Positions 12,938-32,372 are shown, numbered from the stretch's first letter. The stretch: 64,000 nucleotides of DNA from Candidatus Latescibacterota bacterium (GCA_965222075.1 OZ244937.1:1408001-1472000), one strand, 5' to 3'. Translations and numbers: made by a program. Notes: a model not told the origin generated them from the letters alone.

Positions 12938-12958
12938 CACCCCCCAGGGCCTTCCTCT

Positions 12959-13625: not shown

Positions 13626-13654
13626 AGTATATACGGAAACCGCCCGAACGTCAA
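13626..13654 (-). promoter_or_regulatory. Sigma70-type promoter for folE
   Basis: TTGACG-N17-TATACT on the minus strand. Confidence 0.65.
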
Positions 13655-13874
13655 GCAATTTGATCTCATATCCCTTCGTATAACACATTGAATTTCAACC
13701 TGCTAAGGCCTTTGTATCACGCTTCCTTTTAAACACGTCCCACCTTGTCCCAACTCCGGACCTGCCCGCTGTCAACAGATCGTCTTGCAGGAGACATCTC
13801 CTGTTGGGCCTTTACATTGTGTTAAGTTTTTATGAAACATAGCCATACTCTTTACAAAAAGGGTCGAAAATCTG

Positions 13875-13903
13875 TTGACGGAAATCCTTTTTCAGCGTAC
13901 CAT
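13875..13903 (+). promoter_or_regulatory. Sigma70-type promoter for the defence island
   Basis: TTGACG-N17-TACCAT about 115 bp upstream of the DUF499 start. Confidence 0.6.
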
Positions 13904-14018
13904 AACAACGGCTGATTGTGATTTTGGACGTGACTCAGTGCCCTGATTCGCTGGATTCATTGACGAGAACCCGAAATTTTCGCCATAAAGGGCGCAGCGA
14001 ACAGGCGGAGCACAAGCC

Positions 14019-17000: not shown

Positions 17001-17063
17001 CGCCTTGCCCGGTTTGCGAGCGGGGCTGCCTACGTGTCGGCCACGGCGGAGGTCAAGGCTTAA
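14019..17063 (+). CDS. DUF499 family AAA+ ATPase (restriction-like defence backbone)
   Basis: FFANTYPT, Walker A YGGGKTH, Walker B LILLDE, YPLHP, FQRVRGMLR. Confidence 0.9.
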   Translation: MTIPTIFETCRPRADVLKGAITEADFAADLAQVITGTGNAEYLDPARFFANTYPTRGLKNLLANVCRRLTGAGGEVASIFRLDTSYGGGKTHGLIALCHAARGMQGVSGIAEFVDPSLLPQSHVRIAAFDGENADPANGRTMKDGLLAYTPWGEIAYALAGKDGYARVRKSDESRIAPGAETLRELFGGEPVLILLDELSVYLRKVRNLEDARDQLTAFLTSLFKAVESAPDAVLVYTLAIGKDGRATDAYNEENQFIADNMAEAESVSARKATLLNPTEEDEMVQVLLRRLFESIDETRVPAIIDAYRDRWAANRESLTGDAARSETAETFRSSYPLHPDVLETLTGKTATLGNFQRVRGMLRLLARTISHLWEKKPKDATAIHLHHIDPGYEPIRQEIVTRLGQSAYVPAITHDIAAGPVEKKALAQEIDAGHHGGMPPYAVYVARTIFMHTLAFNDPLKGISPEQLRYSVLGPTTDISFIEEARKKFISESAYLDDRPGAPMRFLAEANLRQIIRREEHHVDAGEARAELNDCIREIFGGKTFETVSFPGGPFDVPDEVGDGRPKLAVLAYDGLTIGSSVDDVPELIERIYTRKGSEGSALRALRNNLVFVVADDARKEEMHRKTFHRLALRELKKPERLSDLAEHQQAQVREMEARSEQELAIAIQQCYRHVFYPSRNRVGASDVDLAHSAIDIHSTSDRPGAGQQQIVRALCNLSKLRLSEDQPDSPAYVRDRTPLKKGQITTLALRDEFRRDPALPILIGDDIFIRGVRRGIEQGEYVYQRGELLFGPGDPSAGIMIDEQSVVFTMAYAKNTGIWPRQKPDEPAQTEPGGGEPGWRAKSPGGEPGASFASGPVGGYSVGKAPGSLTAEGVLREALIQLWEQARAKEVETIGVLNIRMFEAGDAFRLFGAVGAVSGAEKIVTLTGGYETREGGSFELTFQGPVSDAQPVKEFLEPQLRDASSSNLEAGFQLTFAEGLSMQGDAAEKLTERLARFASGAAYVSATAEVKA

Positions 17064-17064
17064 A

Positions 17065-17541
17065 ATGGCGGGCCTGGAGAGAATCGCCCAGATCGAGACG
17101 CCGGACTCCGCGCCCCGGTACGAGTTGCGGGTGCGCCGTCACGGGCCGGCCAGTACCGAGTATGAAATCTGGCAGATGCCCGCGACAGCCACGCCGCAGG
17201 TCACATCACCGCTGCGTGTCGCGGGGCTTCGGGGCCGCAACCTCGAATTGGTGGAGCACCGGGTGCTGAAGCGGCTTTCTCGATCCGGCGTCAAGCCGGA
17301 GCGGAGCGTGGGCACCAGGAAGCGCGGCTATACCCTCACGGAAGATCTGGCGCTGACGCTGGGGCTGCTGTTCCGCACACTTGCCCCGATGCGCAGCCGC
17401 CACAACATGCGGGCGGTGGCCGAGGGCATCGAGGCCATGGGGCGCGAGGAGGCCGCCTACTGGCTCGGCATGGCGATGCACCGCCAGCATCCGCGCCGGG
17501 TGCTGGCGGCGTTGCGGTTCCTGCTGACTGAGCCGAAATGA
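17065..17541 (+). CDS. Small conserved partner protein of DUF499 systems (occupies the DUF3780-type position)
   Basis: ATG 2 nt after the DUF499 stop; 158 aa; EEAAYWLGMA motif; stop overlaps the next ATG. Confidence 0.7.
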   Translation: MAGLERIAQIETPDSAPRYELRVRRHGPASTEYEIWQMPATATPQVTSPLRVAGLRGRNLELVEHRVLKRLSRSGVKPERSVGTRKRGYTLTEDLALTLGLLFRTLAPMRSRHNMRAVAEGIEAMGREEAAYWLGMAMHRQHPRRVLAALRFLLTEPK

Positions 17542-18692
17542 TGAGCGGACAGGCTGGTATACAAAAGACACCGAGGGACGACGCCATGGAAACTCAACAA
17601 TCCGGTCGGCTAGCCGACGATGAACAAATCGAAGGCCTGGACCCCAAGAGCGAATCGTGGGGCGACTACCCCATTGACGACCTATTGATCCGGAACGAGA
17701 GTCGAACGATTTTCGATATCATCCGACGGATCAAGAAGGGCGACTATGTTATGAATCCAGACTTCCAGCGAGACTTCATCTGGCCGGAAGACAAGCAAAG
17801 CAAGCTGATCGAATCCGTGATCATGCGGATTCCCCTGCCGGTATTCTATTTGGCGGAAGATGACGAAGGGCGGATGGTGGTCGTGGACGGTTTGCAGCGT
17901 CTGATCACATTTCAAAGATTCGTGAAGGGCGATCTGAAGCTGCACCTACCCGACCGCGACGAACTCAATGGCAAAAAGTTCTCCGACCTCTCGTCCAAAC
18001 TCCAGAACCGTATTGAAGATTGCAATCTGATTCTTTACACCATTGACGCGAAGGTGCCGGAACGTACCCGTCTGGATATCTTCGATCGGGTGAATAGCGG
18101 TGAGCCGCTCACCCGGCAACAGATGCGCAACAGTCTGTTCATGGGACAGGCGACCCGCTTCCTGAAAGAGGAAGCACAGACCGATATTTTCCTTGAGGCA
18201 ACAGGCGAGAGTTTGAATTCAAAAAAAATGAGGGATCGGGAGTTCGTCAATCGATTTTGCGCCTTTCAACTCCTTGACCTTGATGTGTATCGCGGTGATA
18301 TGGACGATTTCCTTGCTACATGCCTGCGTAAAATGAATGAGATGGAAAACTCTGACCTATCGCGATTATCCGAAGAATTTCACAGGGGCCTTGCCAATAA
18401 CCTTGTGCTGTTTGGTCGGCACGCGTTCAGAAAACACACGCCGGAACAGGGATGGCGCAGTGTTCTTAATGCGTCCCTCTGGGATGTGATGTCTACCGGT
18501 TTGTCGCGTTACGCCGAAGACCGGGTCATGGAGTGCGCCGCGCCCCTTTGCCAAGCCGTCTATCGGTTGCTCGGTGACGAGGAGTTTGTCACTGCAATCA
18601 CTTATGGGCCGAACGGCGCCAGAAAGGTAAAACGCCGGTTCCAGATGACTCGGGGAAAATTTGAGGAGATCCTGGATGCTTACACGGATTGA
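17538..18692 (+). CDS. DUF262 (GmrSD N-terminal/ParB-like) protein; Menshen NsnA-like
   Basis: PDFQRDFIW, LIES, VVDGLQRL, IFDRVNSG; alternative start at 17586. Confidence 0.85.
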   Translation: MMSGQAGIQKTPRDDAMETQQSGRLADDEQIEGLDPKSESWGDYPIDDLLIRNESRTIFDIIRRIKKGDYVMNPDFQRDFIWPEDKQSKLIESVIMRIPLPVFYLAEDDEGRMVVVDGLQRLITFQRFVKGDLKLHLPDRDELNGKKFSDLSSKLQNRIEDCNLILYTIDAKVPERTRLDIFDRVNSGEPLTRQQMRNSLFMGQATRFLKEEAQTDIFLEATGESLNSKKMRDREFVNRFCAFQLLDLDVYRGDMDDFLATCLRKMNEMENSDLSRLSEEFHRGLANNLVLFGRHAFRKHTPEQGWRSVLNASLWDVMSTGLSRYAEDRVMECAAPLCQAVYRLLGDEEFVTAITYGPNGARKVKRRFQMTRGKFEEILDAYTD

Positions 18693-19842
18693 TCTGCGGC
18701 ATTTCAAATGCTTCGAAATGTTGAAGCTGCCGATGCGTCCGCTGACCCTGCTGTCCGGCGCCAATGCCTCCGGGAAATCGTCCGTGCTACAGGCACTTGT
18801 CCTGCTACATCAGACGATGCGCGAACAGGAATGGTCGACGCGCCTGATGCTCAACGGCGGCACCGTCCGGCTCGGCACCGTAACCGACGTGATCGATCAG
18901 GTTCACGGGCGCCGCGCTTGCGAGATCGCGTTGCTGGACGGTGATGAGGCGTATTTTCGATGGGAATTCGAGGGCGAACCCGATGAGATGTCGATGGCGG
19001 TGACGCACGTCTATGTCGATGGCGTTGACGGTCTCGACGTGGACGAATTCGAGCCGCTTCACTACTTACTGCCTCACCGCCTGCCGACGCCGTCGGGTGC
19101 CGAATCATTGACCGACCGTCTTCGTGGGCTCGCCTACCTGACCGCCGAGAGGCTGGGGCCGCGTGAGACCTATCCATTGGAGGATCCTCAGCATACGTCC
19201 GTCGTCGGTCCAAGGGGAGAACACGCAGTCAGCGTCCTGCACTCTGGCCGTGGCCTGCGTGTTCTGGACGGCTTGGCGATCGCGGGCGTACCGCCGACCC
19301 GGCTGCGGCAAGTTGAAGCACGTATGGGCCGCTTTTTCCCGGGTTGCGAGTTGATTGTCGATAAGATTCCTCAAGCCAACGCGGTAACTTTGGGAATTCG
19401 GACATCGAGGAGTACGGACTTCCATCGTCCGATTCATACCGGCTTTGGGTTGACGCAGGTCCTCCCAATCGTGGTGGCGGCCTTGTCCGCAGATAAGGGT
19501 GGCTTGCTACTGATCGAGAATCCGGAAGTACATCTCCACCCCGCCGGGCAAGCGGCGATAGGCGAATTTCTCGCCGAAGTCGCGGCTGTGGGCGTGCAGG
19601 TCATTCTCGAGACGCATAGCGACCACGTGTTGAACGGCATTCGGCGGGCCGTCAAGAAAAGGGGTTTGGCTCCCGACGATGCCGCCCTGCACTTCTTTCG
19701 ACTGCGGCAGGATGATGAACAGGAGGGTGCTGTGCAGGTGGCAAGCCCGATCCTGGACCGCGACGGCAATGTCGACATGTGGCCGGAGGGATTTTTCGAC
19801 CAGTTCGACAAGGACATGAATTATTTCGCCGGCTGGAGTTGA
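18676..19842 (+). CDS. ABC-type ATPase with DUF3696 C-terminus; Menshen NsnB-like
   Basis: GANASGKSS, GFGLTQVLP, IENPEVHLHP, ETHSDH, WPEGFFDQ. Confidence 0.85.
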   Translation: MLTRIDLRHFKCFEMLKLPMRPLTLLSGANASGKSSVLQALVLLHQTMREQEWSTRLMLNGGTVRLGTVTDVIDQVHGRRACEIALLDGDEAYFRWEFEGEPDEMSMAVTHVYVDGVDGLDVDEFEPLHYLLPHRLPTPSGAESLTDRLRGLAYLTAERLGPRETYPLEDPQHTSVVGPRGEHAVSVLHSGRGLRVLDGLAIAGVPPTRLRQVEARMGRFFPGCELIVDKIPQANAVTLGIRTSRSTDFHRPIHTGFGLTQVLPIVVAALSADKGGLLLIENPEVHLHPAGQAAIGEFLAEVAAVGVQVILETHSDHVLNGIRRAVKKRGLAPDDAALHFFRLRQDDEQEGAVQVASPILDRDGNVDMWPEGFFDQFDKDMNYFAGWS

Positions 19843-19843
19843 C

Positions 19844-20806
19844 ATGGAATTCTTCGCCAACGACCTGTCGATTCACGGACAATTCTACGACATACCTTTG
19901 TTTCGCGATGCGCTTGCGCGGCTGATGGCCATGCGCAACGCAGCCCGGCGCTTCGGTCGGCAGGTGTATTGCCATCGAGCGTTCACGAGTGTCGAGCCGA
20001 TCCCAGACGTGCCGATGCAGCAAGCAGTGCAGCGTCTTAAGAAGGACGAGCAACGGTCCGTGATGAGTTGGCTAACGAAGGGCGGGCCGTTCTGGGACGA
20101 TCTTCGCAAGCATGGCCCAGCCGACTGGCTGGAATGCCGGGGCGAGGTGGTTACGGATTCCGCCGTGGGGGAAGCGGCGTATCGAAAATTGCATGCCATC
20201 GAATGCGGTCTGGTCAGCGTCACACCGTCCAATTGGGACTTCTCGCCTGTGGCGGTGACTTGGCGACGGGAGGCAGAAGGATTAGAAGACCAGCACACAG
20301 ACCTCGACAACTGGCGAGACGCCTTCACGCTGGAAGAAATGCTGCGCGATGCAGCGCCGCCAATTCGGTCATGGGACGATTTACAAGATTCCTCGACGAA
20401 CCGGTTCAGGAGCCTGACGTTCGCTGGCGACTGCTTCAAGCCGCTTGTAGGGATTCCGTTCTCCGAGAGCGCAGCGGACCGCATCCTCTTCCTACTCGGC
20501 ATTCTGGATCAATTCGCACGTGCCTTCGACGCGGACGGTGCGCGGACATCCGAAGGCCATGGGATTTACCAGAACTACTTTACAGGCGGCGAGAATGCGT
20601 TGTTTTCGGACTCATCACCCCGGGAGAAGCGCAATTTCCGTAATGAATTGACCTTTCCTTACCCGGAGAGTCCTGAAAAGTCCTTGTGCTGCACCTGGCA
20701 TGGCAAGGAGCGTCACATGATGCTTCGCCTGCACTTCTCCTGGCCCATCCAATCCGGCAAGCCGGTTTACGTCGTATATGTCGGCCCTAAGATCACCAAG
20801 CGGTAA
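19844..20806 (+). CDS. Putative effector, C-terminus resembling a RelE-like nuclease; Menshen NsnC-like
   Basis: Third gene of the DUF262-DUF3696 operon; WHGK...RLHF...VYVVYVGP tail. Confidence 0.6.
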   Translation: MEFFANDLSIHGQFYDIPLFRDALARLMAMRNAARRFGRQVYCHRAFTSVEPIPDVPMQQAVQRLKKDEQRSVMSWLTKGGPFWDDLRKHGPADWLECRGEVVTDSAVGEAAYRKLHAIECGLVSVTPSNWDFSPVAVTWRREAEGLEDQHTDLDNWRDAFTLEEMLRDAAPPIRSWDDLQDSSTNRFRSLTFAGDCFKPLVGIPFSESAADRILFLLGILDQFARAFDADGARTSEGHGIYQNYFTGGENALFSDSSPREKRNFRNELTFPYPESPEKSLCCTWHGKERHMMLRLHFSWPIQSGKPVYVVYVGPKITKR

Positions 20807-20836
20807 GGCGACGATGACAACCACGGAACGAGACAC

Positions 20837-21070
20837 ATGCCCGACACCCGCCTGATCGAACGATGGCTGCCGATTGCCGAACTTGGCATCGAAAACACGC
20901 GTGAGCGGTGCCACCTACTTGTCGGCCAAGGCGGGGGTCAAGGCTTAAAATGGTGTGGCTATACCCTCACGGAAGATCTGGCGCTGACCCTAGGGTTGCT
21001 GTTCCGCGCGCTTGCTCCGATGCGCAGCCGCCACAATATGCGGGCGGTGGCCGAGGGCATCGAGGCCATG
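20837..21070 (+). pseudogene. Hybrid scar 1: methyltransferase 5' fragment + DUF499 stop region + internally deleted small-gene fragment
   Basis: 20837-20908 MPDTRLIERWLPIAELGIENTRER; 20909-20953 matches ~17027-17068; 20957-21070 matches ~17326-17439. Confidence 0.9.
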
Positions 21071-21099
21071 CGCCGACGGCTTCGGAGAGGACGGATAAC

Positions 21100-21792
21100 A
21101 TGAGGATCGAGCCGGAGATCAGCGGCGTGAATGTCGTTTTGCTTGGGGATTTCAACCCTGCGATCTTCACACCTGCCTGGTTTGCGCTGCACGGCCTCCT
21201 GTCGGAGAGTGTCACAGACAGCGCAGATTTGCAGGTCGCCCACCAGCAGGTGACAGACTTTGTCGCTGACTGGCTTAGCCTGCAGGTCACGACCGAACGT
21301 TTTTCCGTCGGAACCTTGCAGGCGCCCTATATTCGCCTGCGCGATCTCGTCGCACGGATATTCAAAGAGCACCTGCATCATACGCCCCTCAGAGCGTTCG
21401 GCATCAACCGTTTCGTTCATTTTCAGGTGCAGAGTTTGAATGAGCGGGATCGAATCGGTAGAACACTGGCGCCGGTGGAACCGTGGGGAGCCTGGGGGCA
21501 CGACCTTGGGGTGAATGGCGAGCATGGCGGCATGACATCGCTGACGATGTCGCAAGTCGCCCCCCAGGGAAGGCCAACGGGTGGTCAGATCAACGTCACG
21601 GTGGAGCCGTCCAAACAGATTGGCAAGGGGCGAACTGGAGTTTACGTTCGGGTCAACGATCACTATGCCATCGACAATGCCGAGTTGGGAACTGCCGGAC
21701 GCTTAATGCAACTTTTCGAGGACAACTTCGATACGTCACTCAAACGTAGCGACGGTATCGTTGATCACATCATGTCCTTGGCAAAGACATAA
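21100..21792 (+). CDS. Hypothetical protein (possibly TIGR04255-like), gene 1 of MBL cassette
   Basis: RBS-like GAGAGGA; VVLLGDFNPAIFTPAW, AFGINR and VNDHY motifs. Confidence 0.65.
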   Translation: MRIEPEISGVNVVLLGDFNPAIFTPAWFALHGLLSESVTDSADLQVAHQQVTDFVADWLSLQVTTERFSVGTLQAPYIRLRDLVARIFKEHLHHTPLRAFGINRFVHFQVQSLNERDRIGRTLAPVEPWGAWGHDLGVNGEHGGMTSLTMSQVAPQGRPTGGQINVTVEPSKQIGKGRTGVYVRVNDHYAIDNAELGTAGRLMQLFEDNFDTSLKRSDGIVDHIMSLAKT

Positions 21793-21805
21793 GGAGGTTT
21801 AGTTC

Positions 21806-22411
21806 ATGTTGCAGGCGGCTCAATCCACAGCGGCGCAGCACGCCAATGCGCGTGAAAGGCTCAGTGATTTCGATGAAGATGACGCGCGGGAGTACCTCGT
21901 TCAGAATGCGGACCAACCTGTCCGCTTGTTGTTAGAGCAGGGAGTGGGCTCTCCGACAACAAGTGTACACGACCAGGATATGGAAGGGATGACTATGCCG
22001 GCGTTCGCAGGTCGTGAACAGGACGCCGACAATTTCTCGTGGATTGTGAACTTGCCGCAGCCGCGACCACACCGGTCGCCGCCAGTGACTTTCCACGCCT
22101 TACAAGAGTGGGAAGGCTATGTCACTGAGATAAACGACATGGAATTTACTGCAAGCCTGACCGACCTGACGGCTGGGGCGACCTTTGCGGGAGAAGAAGC
22201 GGATATCCCTATAGACGAAATATTAGAAGCTGATGCCGCTAAAATGCAGGTCGGGAGTATCTTCCGCTGGGTGATCGGCTACGAGCGCACGGCGGGATCG
22301 AAAAAGCGGGTCTCCCATATCGTGTTCCGCGACCTTCCCGCGATTACCAGGACCGACCTGCGGGATGGCGAGGAATGGGCGCATAAAATCATGGCGACTT
22401 TCGAGCAGTGA
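21806..22411 (+). CDS. Hypothetical protein with acidic N-terminus and small beta-rich C-terminal domain, gene 2 of MBL cassette
   Basis: AGGAGG RBS; QEWEGYV...FRWVIGY; stop overlaps the next start (GTGA). Confidence 0.7.
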   Translation: MLQAAQSTAAQHANARERLSDFDEDDAREYLVQNADQPVRLLLEQGVGSPTTSVHDQDMEGMTMPAFAGREQDADNFSWIVNLPQPRPHRSPPVTFHALQEWEGYVTEINDMEFTASLTDLTAGATFAGEEADIPIDEILEADAAKMQVGSIFRWVIGYERTAGSKKRVSHIVFRDLPAITRTDLRDGEEWAHKIMATFEQ

Positions 22412-23502
22412 CAGAAACCAGAAAAGCGGGCAACCCGCCAGGCGAGGATGAGTTTGAGGTCGTGTTGCTTGGCCCTGGCTACGGCGAGAGCATCGTCCTG
22501 CATGTAGGCTGCGGCGGCTGGGTAATCGTTGATTCCTGCATCAACGTCGAAGGGAAACCACGTGCCCTGGAGTATCTCGAAAGCATCGGCGTCAACCCGG
22601 CGGAAGCCGTTGATCTGGTTGTGGCGACTCACTGGCACGACGACCATATACGCGGGATAGCAAAGCTGGTCGAAGCCTGCAGAAAGGCCGATTTCTGTTG
22701 TGCCAATGCGCTTCTCAACAAAGAGTTTCTCGCTGCCGTTGATGCTTTGGAGGGTCGCCACCTTTCCGCGGACGGTTCAGGAGTTCGTGAGATTTACCGC
22801 GTATTCACCTGGCTTGAGTCCGCGGCGTCACGTCCCACGTTCGCTCTATCCAACCGACGCGTCCATGCCCGAGGCAAGTGTGAAATCTGGTCATTGTCGC
22901 CCGATGACACCGCCTTTAAGAACTTCCTGAAATCTGTTGGCAATCTGTTCCCCGGCGAAGGCCGGACAAAGACTCGGCTTCCACCCGTTGCTCCCAACGA
23001 TATTGCGGTCGCGCTGTGGGTCGGCGTTGATGATATTGTGGTACTGCTTGGTTCGGATCTGGAAAAGCGTAGTTGGGTAGAGATTCTACAGAGTGAGGAG
23101 CGGCCGACCAGCAAGGCGTCGGTGTTTAAGGTTCCGCACCACGGAGCGGAAAGCGCCCATGAACCGGAGGTATGGAAGCGGATGCTCGCGCCCGATCCGT
23201 TCGCGGTACTCACGCCCTGGCGCAGAGGCGGCCGTGCGTTGCCGAGCCAAGACGATGTACAGCGCATTCTCTCGCACACCAAAAACGCCTACGCCACCGC
23301 GAAAGCTGGTCCGGCTGCTCAATCCCCGAGATACGCTAACCGAACAGTTGCCCGAACCATTCGCAGTACCGGCATCGAACTTCGGCGGCTCGCGATGTCG
23401 CCCGGCGCGATTCGACTACGGTGCCTGATCGGTTCTCGGGCACCCTGGAAGGTCGAGACCTTCGGAACCGCCTGCCATCTCAAGGACCTCGCCGGGTTAT
23501 AG
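22408..23502 (+). CDS. ComEC/Rec2-like metallo-beta-lactamase-fold hydrolase (putative nuclease)
   Basis: GYGES, VDS, THWHDDH, LLGSDLE, KVPHHG. Confidence 0.85.
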   Translation: MTETRKAGNPPGEDEFEVVLLGPGYGESIVLHVGCGGWVIVDSCINVEGKPRALEYLESIGVNPAEAVDLVVATHWHDDHIRGIAKLVEACRKADFCCANALLNKEFLAAVDALEGRHLSADGSGVREIYRVFTWLESAASRPTFALSNRRVHARGKCEIWSLSPDDTAFKNFLKSVGNLFPGEGRTKTRLPPVAPNDIAVALWVGVDDIVVLLGSDLEKRSWVEILQSEERPTSKASVFKVPHHGAESAHEPEVWKRMLAPDPFAVLTPWRRGGRALPSQDDVQRILSHTKNAYATAKAGPAAQSPRYANRTVARTIRSTGIELRRLAMSPGAIRLRCLIGSRAPWKVETFGTACHLKDLAGL

Positions 23503-23524
23503 ACCATTTGCTCATGGTGTGAAC

Positions 23525-23721
23525 GTGGATTTGAACCGATGTCCGACACCCGCCTGATCGAACGCTGGCTGCCGATCGCCGAGCTTGGCATCGAAAGTAC
23601 GCGCGAGCGGACGCCCAGCCGGTGAAGGGATTTTTGGAACCCCAGCTTCGGGACGCAAGTTCCAAGAACCTCGAGACGGGTTTCCAGTTGACCTTCGCCG
23701 AGGGGCTTTCCATGCAGGGCG
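23525..23721 (+). pseudogene. Hybrid scar 2: methyltransferase 5' fragment fused to a DUF499 3' fragment
   Basis: 23525-23541 identical to 29378-29394; MSDTRLIERWLPIAELGIESTRERTP, then 23608-23721 matches 16864-16977. Confidence 0.9.
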
Positions 23722-23938
23722 GCGCTACTCGCCCAGAGCGGCCTCACGGGTCCTCTTGAGATTGCCAATTCCCCAATAATATTGTTTGCAACAAGTTCGT
23801 TGGAAAGGGCACGATTATGGGGATAGAAAGCAGGGGCGAGCTGGGTCAAGCGGATCGGTTCTTCGGCTCAGGGAAGCGCGAAGCCGTGGCATCGAGTAGG
23901 GAGAAGGTGGTGAACCCCGCAACCCCACAGCCGTGCAG

Positions 23939-23978
23939 CCGGACCGGAAGGATGTGCGACCCACGGCTGATCGAGCGG
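23939..23978 (+). pseudogene. Degenerate extra methyltransferase 5' fragment
   Basis: ccggaccggaaggATGtgcgacccacggctgatcgagcgg (MCDPRLIER) resembles 26958-26997 including the upstream bases. Confidence 0.6.
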
Positions 23979-24323
23979 CGACCTACAGATAGCCTACAGA
24001 TCCTAACCGAAGCCCGGATCCACCAGAAGTATCGACACTTGGCCGGACGGATTTTTGGATCAGTTCGATGTCTCCTCAGTGCGGCGTTCTCTGTGCGCGT
24101 GAATGGCAGTTATCTTACTCATTAACCTCAATACGACAATAATTCAGCGGCAAAGTCGTTCGCGGATCAGAAATACAGCCTTAGGGGCCATTCGAACGCT
24201 CATTTTTACAGGTCGCACTTGGCGGCTTTGAGATTTCCTGATATGGGACCCCAAGCGCGCGATATTCATCGAACCAAATCCGAGTTCGGGTAGCCAAAAT
24301 ATGTCGGATCAAGGTTAATCGCT

Positions 24324-26978
24324 ATGTCTGATTATGATTTCGCGCAGTATCTTAAGATTCTTAATTCAACGAAGTTTCAGCATCTCTGGCCGGCGCAGAA
24401 GCACATCCTGGACGCCTATGACACTGACTTTCTGGACGTCAGGGACGTCGGTATTGAGCTTCCAACCGGGGCCGGAAAAACACTGATTGCGTTGCTCATT
24501 GGAAGCAAGTGGCTTGATTACGGGAAGAAGGTTGTCATTTTGTCGGCGAACAAGACCCTTGCTCGCCAGATGCGTGATGAGGCCACAGTACTTGGGCTAC
24601 CGGTAGCGTACATGGAAGGACGCGGCGAAGATATTCCGGCTGCAAGTCGTCGCTCTTACCAGCGCGCAAAGAAAATCGGGATCATGAATTATTGGGTTTA
24701 TTTCAACCAAAACCCAGTGGTCGACCCTTCAGATCTTGTAGTGATGGACGACGCGCACTTGGCGGAGCATTGCCTGGATTCGCTTTATTCCATCATCATC
24801 AGCCGGAAAGACCATAAATATCTCTTCGAGCAGCTCATACGTGAGCTTCACGATCGCTTCCCCGACTATGCTATCTTGGCAGACGCGGCTACGGCTAATG
24901 CACCACCGAACACTTCGACAGAGCTTCTGTCGTTCATCGATCACGCTGAGATCGTCGAGCGCCTCAAAGAAAATATCGACGCATCTCCGTTAATGACTTC
25001 GGATAGCGACCTGTGTTTTCGCTGGCACCGTCTCCGGGCACAAATTCATCTTACGAATTTCTATATTGGCCGCGATGCACTCTGGTTGCGTCCATACATC
25101 TATCCGCTCATTAGCAACGAACAATACCGACACACCAAACAGGTGCTCTATATGAGCGCCACAATTGGAGATCCAGGGGACTTGGCACGTCGTTTGGGAA
25201 CTCGACCAATCCGAAAGATCCAGGTTCCGGCGCAGTTCGCGGACCGCAGTTCCGGTAGACGTCTTATCGTGATGAACAGGACGAATGACGACTCGGACAT
25301 TCCGCGTCGGATGGCCCTTGCGCTCCACAATGCCATAAGTACGCATCCCAAAAGCGTTTGGCTTTGCGCGAGTGAACACGAGGCAATCCAACTCTGCGAA
25401 GTAGTTGCGGGGTGGCTTGAAACAAACAACCATGTCGGCCACCCAACATGGATTCTGACGCCCCTCGGAGATGAGATTGATCAATTCCGTCGGGCACCCT
25501 CAGGCCATCTTTTCGTGGCCGGACGCTTTGATGGAATGGATTTCAGTGGCGATGAGTGTCGGATCGTTGTTCTGAGCACGATGCCGAGGGCCATTAACCT
25601 CCAGGAGGAATTCATTTCGAGCTATCTGCGCGACAGCGGTTTCATGCGCAGGCGACTGAACCAACGGGTCGTTCAAGGTCTTGGGAGATGCACGAGGACT
25701 GACGATGATTTCGGAGTCTACTTCTTGGCCGATCAGCGATTTGCTACACACTTCTCTCGCGAATCCAACCGGGAGGGGATTCCGCAACACATGGCAGCAG
25801 AGCTAGATCTCGCCCAAGATCTAGCTGAGCGAGAAGAAAATGACCTTGCGAAGTACGTTACGCAGTTTCTGCATGGCGATTTCACCACCTACGATGTTGA
25901 CCTCGCGAAACTCAACGAAGATACTCCACCGCCGATAAGCGGTAATTTGGTAGGCGCCGACACGTCCAAGGACGAAGTAGTCGGTTGGTCCGCATTGTTT
26001 GAGAGCGAAAATTTCGCGGTTGCGCAGCAACGTTTTGAGCGATGCTGGGACACCGCCAAAGAAGACAACAATCTCCGAGAAATTACGGCTCTACATGGAT
26101 GGCATCGAGCTAAGGCGCTGTATCTTGAAGGTCTTCGCGGAAACCAGGTTTCTGTGGACAGAGCGCTTCACGTGCTGGAAGAGTCGATTGAACGCGGAGG
26201 ACTAAGCTCCTGGTTCAACCGGATGCGAGGCTCGCTCAATCGTGCTCGCAACCACAGTATAGCCACCGAAAGCATTGTCCAGCAGGAATATGGGGAATCA
26301 ATTATCCATGGTTTTGACGAACGTCTCGAGCGCCTCGGGACAACAGGACCCAAGTTTCAAGAATTCGTGAATCACCTCAGAGCAAGGCTGGAATCGGGAA
26401 CTCACGCAGAATATCAGGAAGCCTTGGAGGACCTCGGAACTCTACTCTGTTACCGGGCACGACGGCCCAAATTCGGCGCATCACCCGATTGTGTGTGGCG
26501 CGGCGAGTTCGGCAACTCTCGGGAAATTTTTACTTTCGAGGTGAAGGTTGAACAGGAGCCTTCACATCCAATCACCACCACCCACCTAGGTCAGGCTCAC
26601 ACACAGCACAGCTGGGCCAAACAGAAATATGGTATGCAGGGCTATTCAGTTCGGGCCCTAATAGTCACCCATCTTGACCAATTGGCTCCCGATGCTCAAT
26701 CATCTGTGGAGCCGATCAAACTTCTTCATAAGGACGTCGTCCTGGCGCTTTGGACCCGTGTTTGTGACATCATGACCACGTATCGCTCTCTCTGGAATAT
26801 CGATGACATTCAGGCGAAGAGAACAGCAGCAACGGCTATCAGACCGCGACTTCCCAAGACTGGCTGGTTTCTCCGGGCGTTGGATCGTGCGGCCCCATGG
26901 CTTTCTGAGGCTGATGTGCTGAAGGAATGGGACGTGGCAAGACCTGCGCCCGTGTACCCGGATCGGAAAGATGTCTGA
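24324..26978 (+). CDS. SF2 (DinG/Rad3-type) helicase with C-terminal PD-(D/E)xK-like nuclease; Hna-like
   Basis: LPTGAGKT, DDAH, MSAT, FDGMDF, QGLGRCTR; C-terminal PD...FEVK. Confidence 0.8.
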   Translation: MSDYDFAQYLKILNSTKFQHLWPAQKHILDAYDTDFLDVRDVGIELPTGAGKTLIALLIGSKWLDYGKKVVILSANKTLARQMRDEATVLGLPVAYMEGRGEDIPAASRRSYQRAKKIGIMNYWVYFNQNPVVDPSDLVVMDDAHLAEHCLDSLYSIIISRKDHKYLFEQLIRELHDRFPDYAILADAATANAPPNTSTELLSFIDHAEIVERLKENIDASPLMTSDSDLCFRWHRLRAQIHLTNFYIGRDALWLRPYIYPLISNEQYRHTKQVLYMSATIGDPGDLARRLGTRPIRKIQVPAQFADRSSGRRLIVMNRTNDDSDIPRRMALALHNAISTHPKSVWLCASEHEAIQLCEVVAGWLETNNHVGHPTWILTPLGDEIDQFRRAPSGHLFVAGRFDGMDFSGDECRIVVLSTMPRAINLQEEFISSYLRDSGFMRRRLNQRVVQGLGRCTRTDDDFGVYFLADQRFATHFSRESNREGIPQHMAAELDLAQDLAEREENDLAKYVTQFLHGDFTTYDVDLAKLNEDTPPPISGNLVGADTSKDEVVGWSALFESENFAVAQQRFERCWDTAKEDNNLREITALHGWHRAKALYLEGLRGNQVSVDRALHVLEESIERGGLSSWFNRMRGSLNRARNHSIATESIVQQEYGESIIHGFDERLERLGTTGPKFQEFVNHLRARLESGTHAEYQEALEDLGTLLCYRARRPKFGASPDCVWRGEFGNSREIFTFEVKVEQEPSHPITTTHLGQAHTQHSWAKQKYGMQGYSVRALIVTHLDQLAPDAQSSVEPIKLLHKDVVLALWTRVCDIMTTYRSLWNIDDIQAKRTAATAIRPRLPKTGWFLRALDRAAPWLSEADVLKEWDVARPAPVYPDRKDV

Positions 26979-27286
26979 CACCCGCCTGATCGAACGATGG
27001 CTGCCGATTGCAGCTCTTGGAGAAGAGAGTATTCGCGAGCGACGTTCCATGACGGCGTTGCCGCCCACCTATCATCTCCATGTCTGGTGGGCACGGCGTT
27101 TCTCGCCACCCTGCTGCCCGCGGAGGATGATCTGGAGAGGTGTCCGCAGATCCTTGGGATTCATGGAGATCCATTGGCAGCAATAGAATTGACCGAGCAA
27201 AAAGGGCGGGAGTCGCGGTGAATAATCCCTCTCGCTACACCCTCAGGGAAGATCTGGCGTTGACGCTGGGGCTGCGGTTCCTGCTG
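26971..27286 (+). pseudogene. Hybrid scar 3: decayed methyltransferase 5' ~240 bp + small-gene fragments
   Basis: MSDTRLIERWLPIAALGEESIRERRSMTALPPTYHLHVWWARR matches 29392 onward; 27234-27274 matches ~17327-17367, fused to a match of 17513-17526. Confidence 0.9.
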
Positions 27287-27315
27287 GCCGATTCGAGGCC
27301 GAGGGAGGCTCGCCC

Positions 27316-28635
27316 ATGAAACTAAAGTCTGTGGAAATCGAAAACTACCGGGCGATCGAGAAACTTGAGTTGGCACTCGATCCGTCGCTAACGGTTTTTC
27401 ATGGCGACAATTCGCACGGCAAGACCAGTGTTCTGAGCGCTATTGCCGTCGGTTTGGGGGCGGTTCCTTTCTTGCTGCCGGATGTGTCGGGGATTGGATT
27501 CCTCAAGAAGGACCGCCGCGAGGGTGGTGAATGCGTGCGGGTTTCGCTTACTACGACCAATGAAATTACATGGGAACGAACATCGAGCTATGTACGAAAA
27601 AGTAGGTGGACTCTAAGTGAGGATACAGCCCAAGAACGCCAAGAACGGCCCCGTCATACCTTAAGGGAGTTGAAGCAATGGCTGGAGAAGACTGCACTTG
27701 CTGCTTGGGGAACACCTATCGATCTACCGATAATGGCCTTCTATGACACGGAAAGGGTGGTACGGGGTCTCGCGAAACGACGCGGCCGCCCAAAGAGCGC
27801 GATTTCTCGGTATGCTGCGCTGGAAGGCGCACTGTCTGCACGGACTAGCTTTAGGGAGTTGTTTGAGTGGTTCTACATAAAGGAGAACGAAGAACTGAGG
27901 GAACAGCGAGAAAGGCGCGACCTTGACTTTCGCTTGAAAGAACTGACTGCGGTACGCGATGCGATTTCATCCATGATTGATTGCATTGCCGAACCTCACG
28001 TCGAGCTTCGTCCAATGCGCTTTGTGGTATCCGAGAGATTAGACGGGGAGGCCGCTGAAAAACGAACGCTTGACCAGTTGAGTGGCGGCTGTCAAGCCGT
28101 ACTTGCACTTGCCGCTGATTTGGCTTGGCGGATGGCCCAGGGAAACCCTCATCTCGACGACACGCTCTCCTCCGAAGCAATCGTCCTGATTGACGAGATC
28201 GAACTGCATTTACACCCCTCATGGCAGCAACGCATCCTGGGCGACCTGCGGCGGACATTCCCAAACGCGCAGTTTATCGTCTCTACTCACAGCCCGCAGG
28301 TGCTGACTACGGTCGAGCCGCAGCACATTGTGGAACTGTATCGGGATGGCGACCGCATTGTTGCCGGGGCACCAGGGGGGGCGACTTATGGGGCCGAGGC
28401 AGGAGACGTTCTTTCCGTGGTGATGGGTGTAGATGAGCGACCGCCCGAGAACCGCTTCACAAAAGCTTTGGACCAATACCGGCGGCTGATCAGGGAGGAG
28501 CGGTGGGAGTCCAAAGAAGCCTTGGCTCTGCGAGAGAGTCTGGAGAGCATGTCCCCCTACGATTCGGCCCTTGATCGCGCCGACCTTGAGATCAAGCGGC
28601 GCAAGCTATTCAAGCAGCGGGCCGAGTCACAATGA
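27316..28635 (+). CDS. ABC/AAA_21 ATPase, Septu PtuA-like
   Basis: GDNSHGKT, LSGG signature, LIDEIELHLHPSWQ, STHSP. Confidence 0.85.
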   Translation: MKLKSVEIENYRAIEKLELALDPSLTVFHGDNSHGKTSVLSAIAVGLGAVPFLLPDVSGIGFLKKDRREGGECVRVSLTTTNEITWERTSSYVRKSRWTLSEDTAQERQERPRHTLRELKQWLEKTALAAWGTPIDLPIMAFYDTERVVRGLAKRRGRPKSAISRYAALEGALSARTSFRELFEWFYIKENEELREQRERRDLDFRLKELTAVRDAISSMIDCIAEPHVELRPMRFVVSERLDGEAAEKRTLDQLSGGCQAVLALAADLAWRMAQGNPHLDDTLSSEAIVLIDEIELHLHPSWQQRILGDLRRTFPNAQFIVSTHSPQVLTTVEPQHIVELYRDGDRIVAGAPGGATYGAEAGDVLSVVMGVDERPPENRFTKALDQYRRLIREERWESKEALALRESLESMSPYDSALDRADLEIKRRKLFKQRAESQ

Positions 28636-29387
28636 AGATCATCCGCGAATTGAAAACGCCCACTTCCGGCCTTGCCGAATATCTCGATGCCGTGGACGAC
28701 GACGCGAATTGGGTCGAATTCCGCTCTCACGATTCGGGAGCGTCTTACCACGAACTCAGGGATGCCCTGACCCATAGCCAACACGGGCTTTGCGCGTACT
28801 GCGAGATGGTGATCGATGAGTGGCGTCGTCAGGTCGAGCATGTGATCCCGCAGAGCGATGACGGATTAGGTAAAGTGAAAGCCCTCGACATAGCCAACAT
28901 GGTCGCCTGCTGCAAGGGTGGAATCGTGCAGGATGGTGATGAGGATCATTATCGTAGGCCAGTGAGACACACCATGAGTTGTGGTCAGGCAAAGGGAAAT
29001 CAGATTGACGAAAATTTTATTGACCCCCGTACACTACCTGCGTTGCCATCGCTTGTGAGGGTGGTTGATAACGGGCTGATTGAAGCAGACGAAAATGCCT
29101 GCGAAAGGGCCTGTTTTCTTCCCGACCATGTAACCCGCACCATTGAGATTCTGAACCTCAACGCGGAACGGCTCCGGTTGCAGCGGGAGAAGCGGTGGAA
29201 TGGTCTTGAGGAAGAGTCCGGACAAATTGATGATCCGGACAATCCAGATATGATGAATACCTGGATACGCTCTGTGCTGACGCCGGATGAGAACGACCGG
29301 TTGGATCCCTTCTTCACCACTACCCGGTCGTACTTCGCCCCGTTGGGCGAAGGCATCCTGGCAGAAGAACCCCAAAAGTGGATTTGA
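28632..29387 (+). CDS. HNH endonuclease, Septu PtuB/TIGR02646-like
   Basis: QHGLCAYCE, VEHVIPQS, SCGQAKG, TIEILNLN; start overlaps the ATPase stop. Confidence 0.85.
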   Translation: MKIIRELKTPTSGLAEYLDAVDDDANWVEFRSHDSGASYHELRDALTHSQHGLCAYCEMVIDEWRRQVEHVIPQSDDGLGKVKALDIANMVACCKGGIVQDGDEDHYRRPVRHTMSCGQAKGNQIDENFIDPRTLPALPSLVRVVDNGLIEADENACERACFLPDHVTRTIEILNLNAERLRLQREKRWNGLEEESGQIDDPDNPDMMNTWIRSVLTPDENDRLDPFFTTTRSYFAPLGEGILAEEPQKWI

Positions 29388-29391
29388 ACCG

Positions 29392-32370
29392 ATGACTGAC
29401 ACCCGCCTTATAGAACGCTGGCTGCCGATTGCGGCTCTTGGAGAAGAGAGTATTCGCGAGCGACGTTCTATGACGGCATTGCCTCCTACCTATTATCTCC
29501 ACGTCTGGTGGGCGCGGCGGCCGCTGGTGGCGTCGCGGGCGGCTGTTCTGGCGTCACTGCTACCCGCGGACGCCGACAGGGATAAGTTTATGCGTGTCCT
29601 TGGGATTCATGGGGACCCGGTTGCCGCCAAGAAACGAATTGCTATTGCAAACCGGAAAGGGGAACGTTTAGGTGCAAACGCCTACGGTTATCCGCGCGCG
29701 TTTGGCTACACTCCGGACAATCGGGACAAGGCTTGGCTGGCCGAGAATTCGATGAACGGAGCTATCGTTGCTGATCCGACAGCTGGTGGTGGCAGTGTGC
29801 CCTTTGAGGCCGTTCGTCTTGGACTTGCAATCTATGCCAACGACCTGAACCCGGTTGCGGCCCTGATCGAACGCGCGACGCTTGACTGGCCCGCCATGCA
29901 TGGCCCCGAAATCAAGGTGGCCGTCGAAGAGTTGGGAAACAAGCTAACAGTGGAAGTCCGTAAGCGCCTCGCTGACGTATTTCCCGATGAACCGGGAAAC
30001 AACGCCCGGCCAGACGGCTACCTCTGGGCACACACCATCTCCTGTCCCTATTGCGACGGCCTTGTGCCGCTTTCGCCCAACTGGCGTCTCGCGCCCGACG
30101 GGACGGGGGTCAGGCTCAAGCCTCACCTGGCTTCCGGCCCCGGGACGCAGGGCCGTGTCTGTTCGTTCGAGATCGTCCAATCCGCCAGGGAACAGTCGAA
30201 TGGCACGGTGGCGCGTGGTGCCGGCACCTGCCCGTATCCCGATTGCGGGCGCGTGATCGACGGCGATGAGATCAAGACGCAGGCCCAGGCCGGCCACATG
30301 GGCGAGCAACTCTACACCGTCGTCTACAAGAAACGGGTGCTCAGCGAGACCAAGACCGGCAAGACCCGCGAGAAGTGGGTTCGCGGCTACCGGGCGCCGC
30401 GTCCCGAGGACGACAACAGCGCCGAAATTCAGGCGAGGCTTGCCGAGAAGCTGCCCGAGTGGGAAGCATTTGATATTATACCAACCGAGAGCTACGATTA
30501 TATGTATAGCGACCGGTCAAAAATCTATGGCGTCAACAAATGGAGCGACCTGTTCTCGCCGCGCCAGCTCCTTTGCCACGGCACGAGCGTCGAGATTTTC
30601 CGTGAAATGCTCGACGCCGACCGGGCGGAGGGAAAGCTGAATGAGATTCGCCAAGCGGCGTACGGGTACTTGGCGCTCTCAATCAATAAGTTACTAAACT
30701 ACAACTCCCGGATGACTCGTTGGATTGTGCCCCGTGAAGTTGTGGCGGGCACATTCGATCGGCACGACTTCGCTTTCAAATGGTCCTATGCTGAAATGGC
30801 CCCCCTCATCGTCGGCCTGGGCTATGACTGGGCCATCAAACAGACTGCCAAGTGCATCGACGAACTCGTCGCGCTGGTTCGCCCCGAAGCGAACGACCCT
30901 GCGGGCGATCTGTTCGACAGCGCCGGCGCGATGGAATACACCCCACCGCCCGTCACCATCACCTGTAAGCCGGGCGACAGCCTCGACCATATCGAGGACG
31001 GCAGCATTGACGCGGTGGTCATGGACCCGCCCTATTACGACAACGTGATGTATGCCGAGCTATCGGACTTCTTCTATGTCTGGCTCAAGCGCACCGCCGG
31101 GCATGTCTTCCCGGAGCTGTTCCGCCGTCACCTGACGGACAAGGACAACGAGGCCGTCGCCAATCCGGCGAGGTTCAAGGGCGAAAAGGGCGCCCGGGCG
31201 CTCGCGGGACGGGAGTATCAGGAGCGGATGGCCTCCATCTTCGCCGAGTGCCGCCGGACGCTGAAGCCCGACGGCATCATGACCTTGATGTTCACCCACA
31301 AGGCGACCGGGGCCTGGGACGCCCTCACCAAAGGACTGATGGAAGCGGGCTTCGCCATCACTGCTTCATGGCCGATCAACACCGAGGCCGAAGGCAGCCT
31401 GCACATCAAGAACAAGGCGGCGGCCAACAGCACCATCTTTCTGGTCTGCCGCCCGCGCCCTCCCCGTGCGGAAGAGAATACACTGAAGGTGCGCGAAGCG
31501 CCGGCGGTCTACGGCGAAGCCACAACCGCGGTTTATTGGGAGGACGTGGAACCGCGGGTCGCCAGGGCGGTGCGAACGCGGGTCCAGGAATTCCAGGCCG
31601 CGGGCATTGCCGGAGTCGATCTGTATCTGGCTTCCTTCGGCCCCGCGTTGGAGGAGTTCTCGCGCCACTGGCCGTTAAAGCGCGGCACGCCGCACGAAAT
31701 CCCGGAGAAGCGTCGGCGGCGGCGCCAGCAGGTCCTGTTCGAGGAAGAATGGGACCCCTACGCCGCCACGCCGGAAGACGCCCTTGACGCGGCCCGGCGC
31801 GAGGTCAAGCGCTGGCGACTGGAGCAACTGACGCATCTGAAGGCCGATGCCGATCTCGATCCGGCCACGGCGTTTCTCGTGCTGGCGTGGGACGCCTTTA
31901 AGGCGCCGAAGTTTTCCTACGACGAAGCGCTGAGGCTCGCCCGCGCCGTCGGTATCGATCTCGATAATGACATCGTCGGCCGGCTCGCGGAGAAGAAAGG
32001 CAGCGATATTATCTTATGGGATAGTTCGCGTCGGGCTACCAGGGGGACACTCGGCCCGGTGGATGGCTCCCGGGGCATGGTCGACGCCATCCACCATGCC
32101 GCCCACATGGCCCGCATACGCTCCCTCGCCGCCGCCCAGGAAATGCTCGCCAACGCGCTGGTAGACCAGGAGCCGCGCTTCTTCGCGGCCCTCGAAGCTG
32201 TGCTCGAGGTTCTGCCGGTGTCCAGGGCCTATACCGGGATCGATCTGGAGGGCGAAACCGCAGACGCTGGCGACGATTTCGAAGCCCTCTACAAACTGGC
32301 CCGCCTCGCATACGGCGACGAGATCGACGAGCCCGAGCAACTCAAGCTCTGGCAGGAAGAAAACGCCTGA
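29392..32370 (+). CDS. DUF1156 adenine-specific DNA methyltransferase
   Basis: LHVWWARRPL, DPTAGGGS (motif I), DPPYY (motif IV), CPYC/CPYPDC Zn motifs. Confidence 0.92.
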   Translation: MTDTRLIERWLPIAALGEESIRERRSMTALPPTYYLHVWWARRPLVASRAAVLASLLPADADRDKFMRVLGIHGDPVAAKKRIAIANRKGERLGANAYGYPRAFGYTPDNRDKAWLAENSMNGAIVADPTAGGGSVPFEAVRLGLAIYANDLNPVAALIERATLDWPAMHGPEIKVAVEELGNKLTVEVRKRLADVFPDEPGNNARPDGYLWAHTISCPYCDGLVPLSPNWRLAPDGTGVRLKPHLASGPGTQGRVCSFEIVQSAREQSNGTVARGAGTCPYPDCGRVIDGDEIKTQAQAGHMGEQLYTVVYKKRVLSETKTGKTREKWVRGYRAPRPEDDNSAEIQARLAEKLPEWEAFDIIPTESYDYMYSDRSKIYGVNKWSDLFSPRQLLCHGTSVEIFREMLDADRAEGKLNEIRQAAYGYLALSINKLLNYNSRMTRWIVPREVVAGTFDRHDFAFKWSYAEMAPLIVGLGYDWAIKQTAKCIDELVALVRPEANDPAGDLFDSAGAMEYTPPPVTITCKPGDSLDHIEDGSIDAVVMDPPYYDNVMYAELSDFFYVWLKRTAGHVFPELFRRHLTDKDNEAVANPARFKGEKGARALAGREYQERMASIFAECRRTLKPDGIMTLMFTHKATGAWDALTKGLMEAGFAITASWPINTEAEGSLHIKNKAAANSTIFLVCRPRPPRAEENTLKVREAPAVYGEATTAVYWEDVEPRVARAVRTRVQEFQAAGIAGVDLYLASFGPALEEFSRHWPLKRGTPHEIPEKRRRRRQQVLFEEEWDPYAATPEDALDAARREVKRWRLEQLTHLKADADLDPATAFLVLAWDAFKAPKFSYDEALRLARAVGIDLDNDIVGRLAEKKGSDIILWDSSRRATRGTLGPVDGSRGMVDAIHHAAHMARIRSLAAAQEMLANALVDQEPRFFAALEAVLEVLPVSRAYTGIDLEGETADAGDDFEALYKLARLAYGDEIDEPEQLKLWQEENA

Positions 32371-32372
32371 CC

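Follow-up and report, generated by a model that had tools for sequence, protein, structure and literature searches.

The Hma defence system, named the DUF499-centred bacteriophage exclusion (BREX)-related system in PMC12839542, was surveyed by Payne et al. (2024; bioRxiv 10.1101/2024.01.29.577857), who reported embedded genes in 931 of 1485 Hma systems, with at most three embedded genes allowed between the hma genes and with pseudogenes left out. According to these authors the significance of the embedding "remains to be explored", and the words "recombination" and "remnant" do not occur in their main text; the mechanism of exchange was also left open for the P2/P4 defence hotspots (PMC13586616). 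Here we describe a stretch of 64,000 nucleotides (nt) from Candidatus Latescibacterota bacterium (GCA_965222075.1 OZ244937.1:1408001-1472000; hereafter the window, positions being counted from its first letter), in which an Hma operon carries four intact cassettes in the hotspot between its small DUF7680 gene and hmaB, separated by chimeric scars of core-gene pieces. Comparison of related loci suggested that this hotspot probably grew to its four cassettes as foreign Hma hotspot segments were added repeatedly, without a recombinase.

A DUF499 ATPase, a DUF1156 methyltransferase and an SNF2 helicase were detected with PADLOC and Pfam in co-orientation on the + strand, and the list of open reading frames (ORFs) together with the hidden Markov model (HMM) scans placed core and cargo in one co-oriented + strand block. 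Judged from its sequence, the host locus is the known, BREX-related Hma defence operon. It has in common with the systems described by Payne et al. (2024) the HmaA/HmaB/HmaC composition, the position of the hotspot, the presence of Septu (the commonest embedded system in that study) and the orientation of the embedded genes with the operon, and the PADLOC model PDC-S28, matched by one of the cassettes, stems from the candidate list of the same work. The first-pass annotation of this DNA had seen the array as the best candidate for an undescribed system, which did not hold, since the host is the published Hma, for which embedded defences at this hotspot have been reported (Payne et al., 2024). 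The scar anatomy, the arrays of several cassettes and the recombinase-free accretion proposed below appear to be new; multi-cassette arrays and core-gene scars, both present in the window, are not described in the main text of Payne et al. (2024), and no description of core-gene scars between Hma-embedded cassettes was found in the literature, supplements lying outside the search.

Self-comparison of positions 13001-36000 by blastn, a check proposed at first pass, was combined with a repeat search and yielded 13 off-diagonal alignments (E 2e-4 to 4e-46), all of which tie the gaps between the cassettes to each other or to the core genes. Three chimeric relics were recognised, in which the first 72-270 nt of hmaB are fused to the 3' end of hmaC and/or to pieces of the small gene (scars 1 to 3, Table 1). 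In scar 1, the hmaB-start copy (20837-20908, 72 nt) matches the real gene at 84% over 50 nt and the copy at 23539 at 90%; the hmaC part (20903-20953) corresponds to 17018-17068 (88%) and the small-gene part (20957-21070) to 17326-17439 (94%), with 17069-17325 missing by internal deletion of the small gene, and the whole encodes a chimeric ORF of 88 amino acids (aa; 20837-21103). Scar 2 joins an hmaB-start copy (23539-23610) to an hmaC part (23608-23725) corresponding to 16864-16981 (93%). Scar 3 opens with a longer hmaB copy (26970-27098, 129 nt, 91% to the real gene), followed after the frame break by a further hmaB stretch (27096-27206, aa 51-90, 50% identity) that had escaped the first pass, and by small-gene parts at 27234-27281 (17327-17374, 92%) and 27268-27296 (resembling 17508-17536). 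The units measure 2.4-3.4 kb and are bordered by hmaB 5' copies of 72-129 nt, the distance from the cargo stop to the ATG of the hmaB copy (hmaB') being about 30 nt after NsnC and 36 nt after the metallo-beta-lactamase (MBL) gene, and the longest exact runs common to the repeat copies are 14-35 nt.

These results bore out the anatomy given in the first-pass annotation: four unrelated units with full-length ORFs lie between the small gene and the methyltransferase, copies of the methyltransferase start are present at 20837, 23539 and 26971 and in degenerate form at 23952, each of scars 1 to 3 joins such a copy to hmaC and/or small-gene pieces, and a head-to-tail repetition of left flank, cargo and right flank is supported. 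To this list blastn and blastx added two relics in the zone 23726-24323, one of an S28 3' end followed by an hmaB start (23924-23977, ATG at 23952; 23931-23977 resembles 26950-26996, 79%) and the other of an NsnB-like C-terminus (24028-24069; 24032-24068 resembles 19772-19808, 86%).

In-frame fusions of an HmaB N-terminus to a small-protein C-terminus, with the start codon kept, were observed in the window (20837-21103) and in two related loci, L067 (13076-13200) and L080 (14340-14450). In L107 and in scar 3 the frame is not kept, and with so few cases the in-frame fusions may be due to chance.

The joints within the scars, as far as sequence can tell, are illegitimate and not site-specific, because they lie at microhomologies and in variable positions. 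At joint 1, GAGCGG is common to hmaB and to hmaC at 17018, and at joint 2 a 10-nt microhomology, CGGACGCCCA, was inferred between type 1 hmaB alleles (L014, L015) and hmaC 16862-16871, a figure that assumes a donor hmaB allele like those of L014 and L015. Across the window, L067, L080 and L107, hmaB is cut at about nt 39, 60, 72-81, 150 and 129-270, and the left piece begins at differing points of hmaC or of the small gene; in L067, about 13 codons of hmaB are retained and run into the small-gene C-terminus, and L080 and L107 are cut elsewhere again. In a second type of Hma locus, the copies range from 40 to 281 nt. A site-specific model was rejected on account of these differing cut points.

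The variability of the joints bears directly on whether a dedicated trans-acting recombinase, or a mobile element that escaped recognition, used the hmaB start or the small-gene end as its attachment site. In scars 1 and 2 alike the hmaB piece stops near nt 72-81, and the hmaB start-codon region is kept in every unit, as such an element would predict; the coincidence at nt 72-81 is, however, accounted for by the GAGCGG(ACGCCCA) microhomology, the cut points differ in every other scar examined (copies of 40-281 nt), and the left ends lie in hmaC in some cases and in the small gene in others. In agreement with the first-pass annotation, the domain scans and the repeat search found no integrase, transposase, attC or terminal inverted repeat: recombinase domains were absent from the 30 ORFs scanned (cargo, and flanks 4490-13603 and 35734-47452), and the only inverted repeats were three weak ones of 27-29 nt with 70-74% complementarity, none at a cassette end. 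With no recombinase or specific att sites found and with the cut points variable, we regard this explanation as very improbable. No tRNA gene lies within 20 kb of the array, the nearest being at 55576. Like integron arrays, the window holds same-strand, promoter-less-looking cassettes in tandem on one platform, but integrons possess IntI, attI and attC, none of which was found here, and the joints of the window are illegitimate and variable. As for integrative islands, no integrase is present and the repeats are 74-93% alike, with exact runs of at most 35 nt. Predicted promoters and terminators in 13500-33000 (9 and 15, against 6.8±2.3 and 17.8±5.4 in shuffled sequences) showed no excess and were uninformative.

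The allelic make-up of the scars indicated where their hmaB pieces may come from. The hmaB start occurs in two allele classes, of which scars 1 and 2 carry type 1, and the resident gene and scar 3 carry type 2. Over 72 nt, the type 1 pieces in scars 1 and 2 share 74-78% identity with resident hmaB but 89-92% with the alleles of L077 and L081. A mosaic was seen in scar 3, with nt 1-128 resident-like (91%) and the next 111 nt matching only L126 and L016 (79%), which is what a crossover within the conserved first ~130 nt would leave. Moreover, cargo and flanking allele are linked across genomes: Nsn is followed by a type 1 hmaB start in all four full genes examined and in scar 1, and Septu by type 2 hmaB in the window and in L014, with L029 (type 1) as an exception. 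By these comparisons, the hmaB alleles of the scars are of foreign origin.

This allelic evidence is difficult to reconcile with duplication in situ, by which some break-and-fill or replicative insertion would have copied the flank of the recipient itself, the copies diverging later. The left-flank pieces, being closest to the resident genes (88-94%), agree with that explanation, and insertions of restriction-modification (RM) systems with direct repeats of more than 30 bp over start or stop codons and without mobility genes are on record (Furuta 2010, PMC2853133). The array resembles these insertions with long target duplication (Nobusato 2000; Furuta 2010) in having an insert of less than 20 kb, no mobility genes and direct repeats of tens to hundreds of bp over gene starts or stops; the repeats reported there are nevertheless near-identical (for example 44-47 of 46-47 bp), whereas in the window the copies have 74-93% identity, represent different alleles and are joined to a piece of the opposite flank. 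Since the hmaB pieces of scars 1 and 2 fall in the other allele class, closer to foreign alleles, since duplication of a single target gives no chimera of right and left flanks, and in view of the linkage between cargo and flanking allele, duplication in situ was judged quite unlikely.

Related loci provided counterparts for most elements of the array. Among 60 relatives, homologous operons (~75% DNA identity) were found in three that belong to the same family. One locus, L014, has the order hmaC-small-201-Septu-[hmaB'::hmaC3'::small']-NsnABC-hmaB, that is, the same kind of scar with another order of cassettes, and L015 carries an hmaC fragment ahead of Nsn. The single-cargo loci expected at first pass exist, in the same architecture, for Nsn, the MBL unit and Septu, three of the four cassettes; in L055 (Nsn) and L054 (MBL unit), about 30-36 nt separate the cargo stop from the hmaB ATG, as in the window, and empty and single-cargo sites are represented by L061, L083, L055 and L054. 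In the class as a whole, the DUF1156 N-terminal domain had matches in 65 of 132 genomes; among the 150 of 183 matches that were listed, about 34 (by hand count) were short frames, many of which, as checked in individual loci, precede a full gene on the same strand by less than 20 kb. The genome also contains, outside the window, a second and different Hma-like locus (G000:C1:5220733-5256348; L032 and L033), with its helicase at 5220733-5224209, DUF1156 at 5246463-5249459 and DUF499 at 5253502-5256348. Its cassettes take up about 22 kb from the helicase to the methyltransferase and about 4 kb from there to DUF499, and are bordered by DUF1156 5' copies (281 and 106 nt), DUF1156 3' copies (119 and 86-105 nt) and copies of the helicase 3' end.

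To extend the comparison, an alignment of ten small proteins was used to collect 441 related loci in genome contigs, and the best 80 (L061-L140; small protein 72-89% identical to that of the window; partly overlapping the loci examined individually) were surveyed. Their metagenome-assembled genomes (MAGs) are titled as Acidobacteriota, Latescibacterota, Binatia, Entotheonella, Alpha- and Gammaproteobacteria, Gemmatimonadota and others. Scars were called with pooled left- and right-flank DNA queries against the hotspot interiors (E < 1e-6); as the L125 left-flank query picked up cargo, hits below query position 240 were dropped before counting. Of the 80 hotspots, 56 were complete and 14 of these contained flank fragments, with none in the 10 hotspots shorter than 1 kb versus 10 of the 18 of at least 4.5 kb. 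The median hotspot length was 6622 nt with scars versus 2622 nt without (Mann-Whitney p 7e-5, the loci not being independent). A single recognised unit without a scar was present in 34 loci, and scars in seven of the eight loci with at least two recognised cassettes versus 16 of the 72 others (Fisher p 5e-4), as anticipated by the first-pass idea that cargo number tracks scar number; these p-values overstate the case, as the loci are linked by descent and transfer. Six multi-cassette loci (L067, L076, L077, L080, L107, L137) have their scars between cassettes, and the cargo of the survey was mostly Septu, Nsn and the MBL unit. In the same set, hmaC and hmaA are 66-89% and the small DUF7680 proteins 72-89% identical between MAG records titled as different phyla, and therefore recent transfer of the whole operon across phyla is implied.

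A double crossover in both flanks results in a swap of cargo only, and retention of the old cargo needs a Campbell-type single crossover or an illegitimate event. We propose that the incoming DNA, consisting of the hmaC 3' end, the small gene, a cargo and the hmaB 5' end of another Hma locus, would undergo a single homologous, RecA-type crossover in one conserved core-gene end, which would add the cargo instead of swapping it; such a crossover would need a circular or circularised donor and would leave a tandem arrangement. Redundant core material between old and new cargo would then be removed, or would have been joined already, at short microhomologies, giving the chimeric hmaB5'::hmaC3'/small' scars, which would decay through small deletions and frame breaks, and further deletions may strip cassettes and leave cargo-less relics. 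A short circle with hmaB'::hmaC' joined beforehand would be the limiting case of this two-step route. The crossover, the circular donor and the order of events are inferred. The route is favoured because full-length hmaC is kept behind an hmaB or small-gene fragment in four of 72 loci, L048+L049 and L050 contain systems repeated in tandem, wholly or in part, with 81-94% identity, hmaC bears internal deletions in L057, L097, L099 and L115, and L052 contains an MBL::hmaB deletion fusion.

The same joints could also have formed in one step, by homology-facilitated illegitimate recombination with a linear donor, such as might follow natural transformation, in which one end pairs with the resident hmaB start and the other joins at a microhomology a few dozen bases off, with no circle or tandem intermediate. 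The 6-10 nt microhomologies at joints 1 and 2 fit this route, which was proposed for the analogous effector-immunity arrays of the Vibrio cholerae type VI secretion system (T6SS), said to be formed by homologous and homology-facilitated illegitimate recombination (PMC8189183), and many cases of long target duplication are from naturally competent species (PMC2853133). Linear donors, however, normally delete or replace recipient DNA at the anchor, which is here duplicated (hmaB nt 1-72 or 1-129), and stepwise deletion better explains why relics grade up to full-length core genes and entire tandem systems, so that we consider this route unlikely, though it accords with the data better than duplication in situ or a trans-acting recombinase, both of which fit worse than either the two-step or the linear route. 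The earlier proposal, namely homologous recombination at one flank plus an illegitimate joint, or circular intermediates, is supported in part: the illegitimate joints stand on their microhomology and variability, and among the routes by which they may have arisen the two-step one is favoured.

As to the further idea of an accordion permitting loss or amplification, loss is suggested by cargo-less relics, which comprise the window zone 23726-24323, a small-gene fragment right after the full small gene (L062, L109) and an hmaB' right before hmaB (L120); amplification was not seen among the loci compared. With exact repeats of only 14-35 nt in the window, the case for an accordion is weak.

Outside the hotspot proper, Septu stands directly upstream of hmaC in several genomes (L055, 1-1538; L057, 1665-3709; L082, 448-6733), in L082 with a small-gene fragment before it and an hmaB fragment after it, and therefore arrays can extend upstream of full hmaC too. 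Lone fragments of a DUF1156 start or small-gene end, often beside ABC-ATPase or Septu-like genes, were also observed far from any full Hma (G000:C1:699499-699744, - strand, L034; L029, L043, L045, L046, L047, L059, L060), and may either be left over from Hma loci since lost or mark cassettes that carried a scar along when they moved.

The closest analogues of such accretion are the orphan rhs-CT/rhsI modules of Rhs and contact-dependent growth inhibition (CDI) loci (PMC3967940) and the T6SS arrays (PMC8189183, citing Kirchberger 2017). According to these sources, they too are integrase-free tandem arrays in which each displaced module keeps a fragment of the conserved neighbour, arrival being by horizontal transfer and recombination in the conserved part, and the fragments permit later rearrangement. 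The tandem modules of the window likewise each hold a conserved-neighbour fragment, but in the toxin loci the fragment comes from one flank, the toxin is truncated to its C-terminal part and the content is toxin-immunity pairs, whereas the window has two-flank chimeras and a cargo of complete anti-phage systems, not a toxin C-terminal domain with its immunity gene.

A concatenation of single-cargo strain variants by the assembler, feared at first pass, was weighed separately. The genome, apparently of metagenomic origin, is one 5.36 Mb contig with an estimated contamination of 5.2%, and the runs in which the sequence occurs are metagenomes where many related populations (85-99% identity) coexist and the locus has alternative neighbours, a setting in which such an artefact could arise. 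An assembler cannot, however, create joints such as hmaB-nt-72::hmaC-nt-2850, the repeats share exact runs of only 14-35 nt, and the same kind of scar is found in many other assemblies. Among short Logan metagenome contigs of runs X1-X6, X1 contigs cover 23646-24395 (the rest of scar 2 into S28) and 26069-27006 (S28 into scar 3), besides other stretches, with no difference. An assembly artefact is hence hardly credible. Contigs of X3, a run of another study, match cassette interiors (23545-24990 and 20352-20796) almost exactly and diverge at the cassette ends, which suggests populations with the same cassettes beside other neighbours; one of them (2357 nt) matches 23545-24990 with four differences, and its first 883 nt, which are not from upstream, hint at another neighbour joined at the hmaB' start. 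An apparent joint of 17477 to 23536 (X4, X6) was not used, as only 23 letters lie on one side of it.

Several observations weigh against accretion by recombinase-free addition, to which the assumption about the donor allele at joint 2 also belongs. No donor molecule, circle or crossover was observed, the case being comparative inference throughout. The closeness of the left-flank scar pieces to the resident genes (next best 86-90%) may point to an origin within the lineage or to gene conversion of these pieces. S28 was found in none of the 80 surveyed loci, and among 80 metagenome loci with S28 relatives (at most 65% identity) three had weak Hma-like neighbours and none a window-type Hma, so that no single-cargo donor came to light for this cassette. 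Scars are also present in 16 of the 72 loci without multiple recognised cassettes and undetectable in eight of the 18 hotspots of at least 4.5 kb. The first-pass annotation had taken multi-cargo blocks free of scars as contrary evidence, and among the eight multi-cassette loci, seven of which are scarred, L133 has two recognised cassettes and no scar. Finally, no listed short contig bridges a whole scar with both of its cassettes, and an exact 38-mer over joint 2 had no match in the JGI metagenome contigs.

Table 1. Features of the cassette array and its host operon (positions in the window).
Feature	Position	Strand	Evidence or composition
hmaC, DUF499 AAA+ ATPase, left core gene	14019-17063	+	PADLOC HmaC 9e-97; Pfam DUF499 3e-38
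Small core gene, DUF7680, 158 aa	17065-17541	+	Pfam PF24728 9e-44
Cassette 1, NsnABC	17538-20806	+	PADLOC, near full HMM length
NsnA (GmrSD_N-like)	17538-18692	+	PADLOC 1e-111
NsnB (ABC ATPase + DUF3696)	18661-19842	+	PADLOC 3e-101
NsnC	19844-20806	+	PADLOC 7e-114
Scar 1	20837-21070	+	hmaB nt 1-72 (type 1) :: hmaC last 51 nt :: small-gene nt 262-375
Cassette 2, unnamed three-gene unit	21097-23502	+	orfX, 201-aa gene, MBL-fold protein
orfX, 231 aa	21097-21792	+	ORF
201-aa gene	21806-22411	+	ORF
MBL-fold protein	22408-23502	+	Pfam MBL fold 1.8e-8
Scar 2	23539-23725	+	hmaB nt 1-~81 (type 1) :: hmaC nt 2846-2963
Relic zone	23726-24323	+	decayed S28 3' end + hmaB start; NsnB-like C-terminal fragment
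Cassette 3, PDC-S28, DinG/Rad3-like helicase, 884 aa	24324-26978	+	PADLOC 1.3e-84, residues 15-828; Pfam Helicase_C_2, DEAD, ResIII
Scar 3	26971-27300	+	hmaB nt 1-129, frame break, diverged hmaB aa 51-90, internally deleted small gene (27234-27296)
Cassette 4, Septu	27316-29387	+	PADLOC, full length
PtuA, ABC ATPase	27316-28635	+	PADLOC 9e-111, 1-431 of 439 aa
PtuB, HNH nuclease	28632-29387	+	PADLOC 4e-55; weak Pfam HNH_5
hmaB, DUF1156 N6-adenine methyltransferase, right core gene, type 2 5' allele	29392-32370	+	PADLOC HmaB 9e-68; Pfam DUF1156 5e-15
hmaA, phospholipase D (PLD)-nuclease/SNF2 helicase	32373-35540	+	Pfam SNF2-rel_dom, Helicase_C, PLDc_2; PADLOC HmaA 9e-61, PLD_Helicase 5e-75

As summarized in Table 1, all cargo ORFs are open, and the named cassettes cover their PADLOC models nearly end to end. 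Adjacent genes matching the NsnA, NsnB and NsnC models make up the first cassette, a single gene matching the PADLOC candidate model the PDC-S28 cassette, and PtuA followed by PtuB the Septu cassette. The guanine-plus-cytosine (GC) content of the cargo is 0.53-0.58 versus 0.62-0.69 in the core genes, with 0.567 for the first cassette (against 0.63 of the core) and 0.527 for PDC-S28. The start of the small gene was picked from an alignment of 10 homologues, and its stop codon overlaps the start of nsnA (17541 and 17538). The operon lies among housekeeping genes, with GTP cyclohydrolase I and an aldolase upstream and a BCCT transporter and a TonB receptor downstream.

The second cassette is a candidate defence system. 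Neither orfX nor the 201-aa protein was assigned to a family in Pfam, PADLOC or NCBIfam scans, and the orfX-201-aa-MBL unit ranks among the top three cargos of window-type Hma across phyla in the survey. In the Hma hotspots of L054, L056, L057 and many of the surveyed loci, the 201-aa gene is found with the MBL gene, and the space upstream would accommodate orfX; in L017 all three genes are present and no Hma genes were detected nearby. The unit also occurs elsewhere in the same genome (G000:C1:4112698-4115043, - strand) and in L030. A short gene whose homology is confined to the C-terminal half of the 201-aa protein (aa ~96-201) was observed within the hotspot directly after the small gene in L015 (10235-10540) and L016 (9823-10128) and just before hmaB in L053 (8149-8451), and the full 201-aa gene precedes Septu in L014 and L018.

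The scars offer a testable answer to the question of how embedding in Hma arises: cassettes would pass from one Hma locus to another along with core-gene pieces and be added or swapped, with no dedicated recombinase needed, and this reading would account for multi-layer defence operons. More tentatively, and with less likelihood than the accretion itself, the conserved ends of the Hma core genes (the small gene and the first ~70-130 nt of hmaB) might serve as portable homology arms, an "integron without an integrase" through which a common stock of cassettes (Septu, Nsn, the MBL unit and others) is exchanged and stacked across phyla in one habitat, embedding being selected in the platform instead of arising as a by-product; if so, the scars would be a fossil record of each cassette gain and loss. 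In practice, core-gene fragments within a hotspot provide a signature by which cassettes such as the orfX/201-aa/MBL unit can be delimited and found, and the richest loci may escape pipelines that limit how many genes can be embedded or that discard pseudogenes. The array anatomy relates defence hotspots to the orphan arrays found at toxin loci, which have been studied in more depth.

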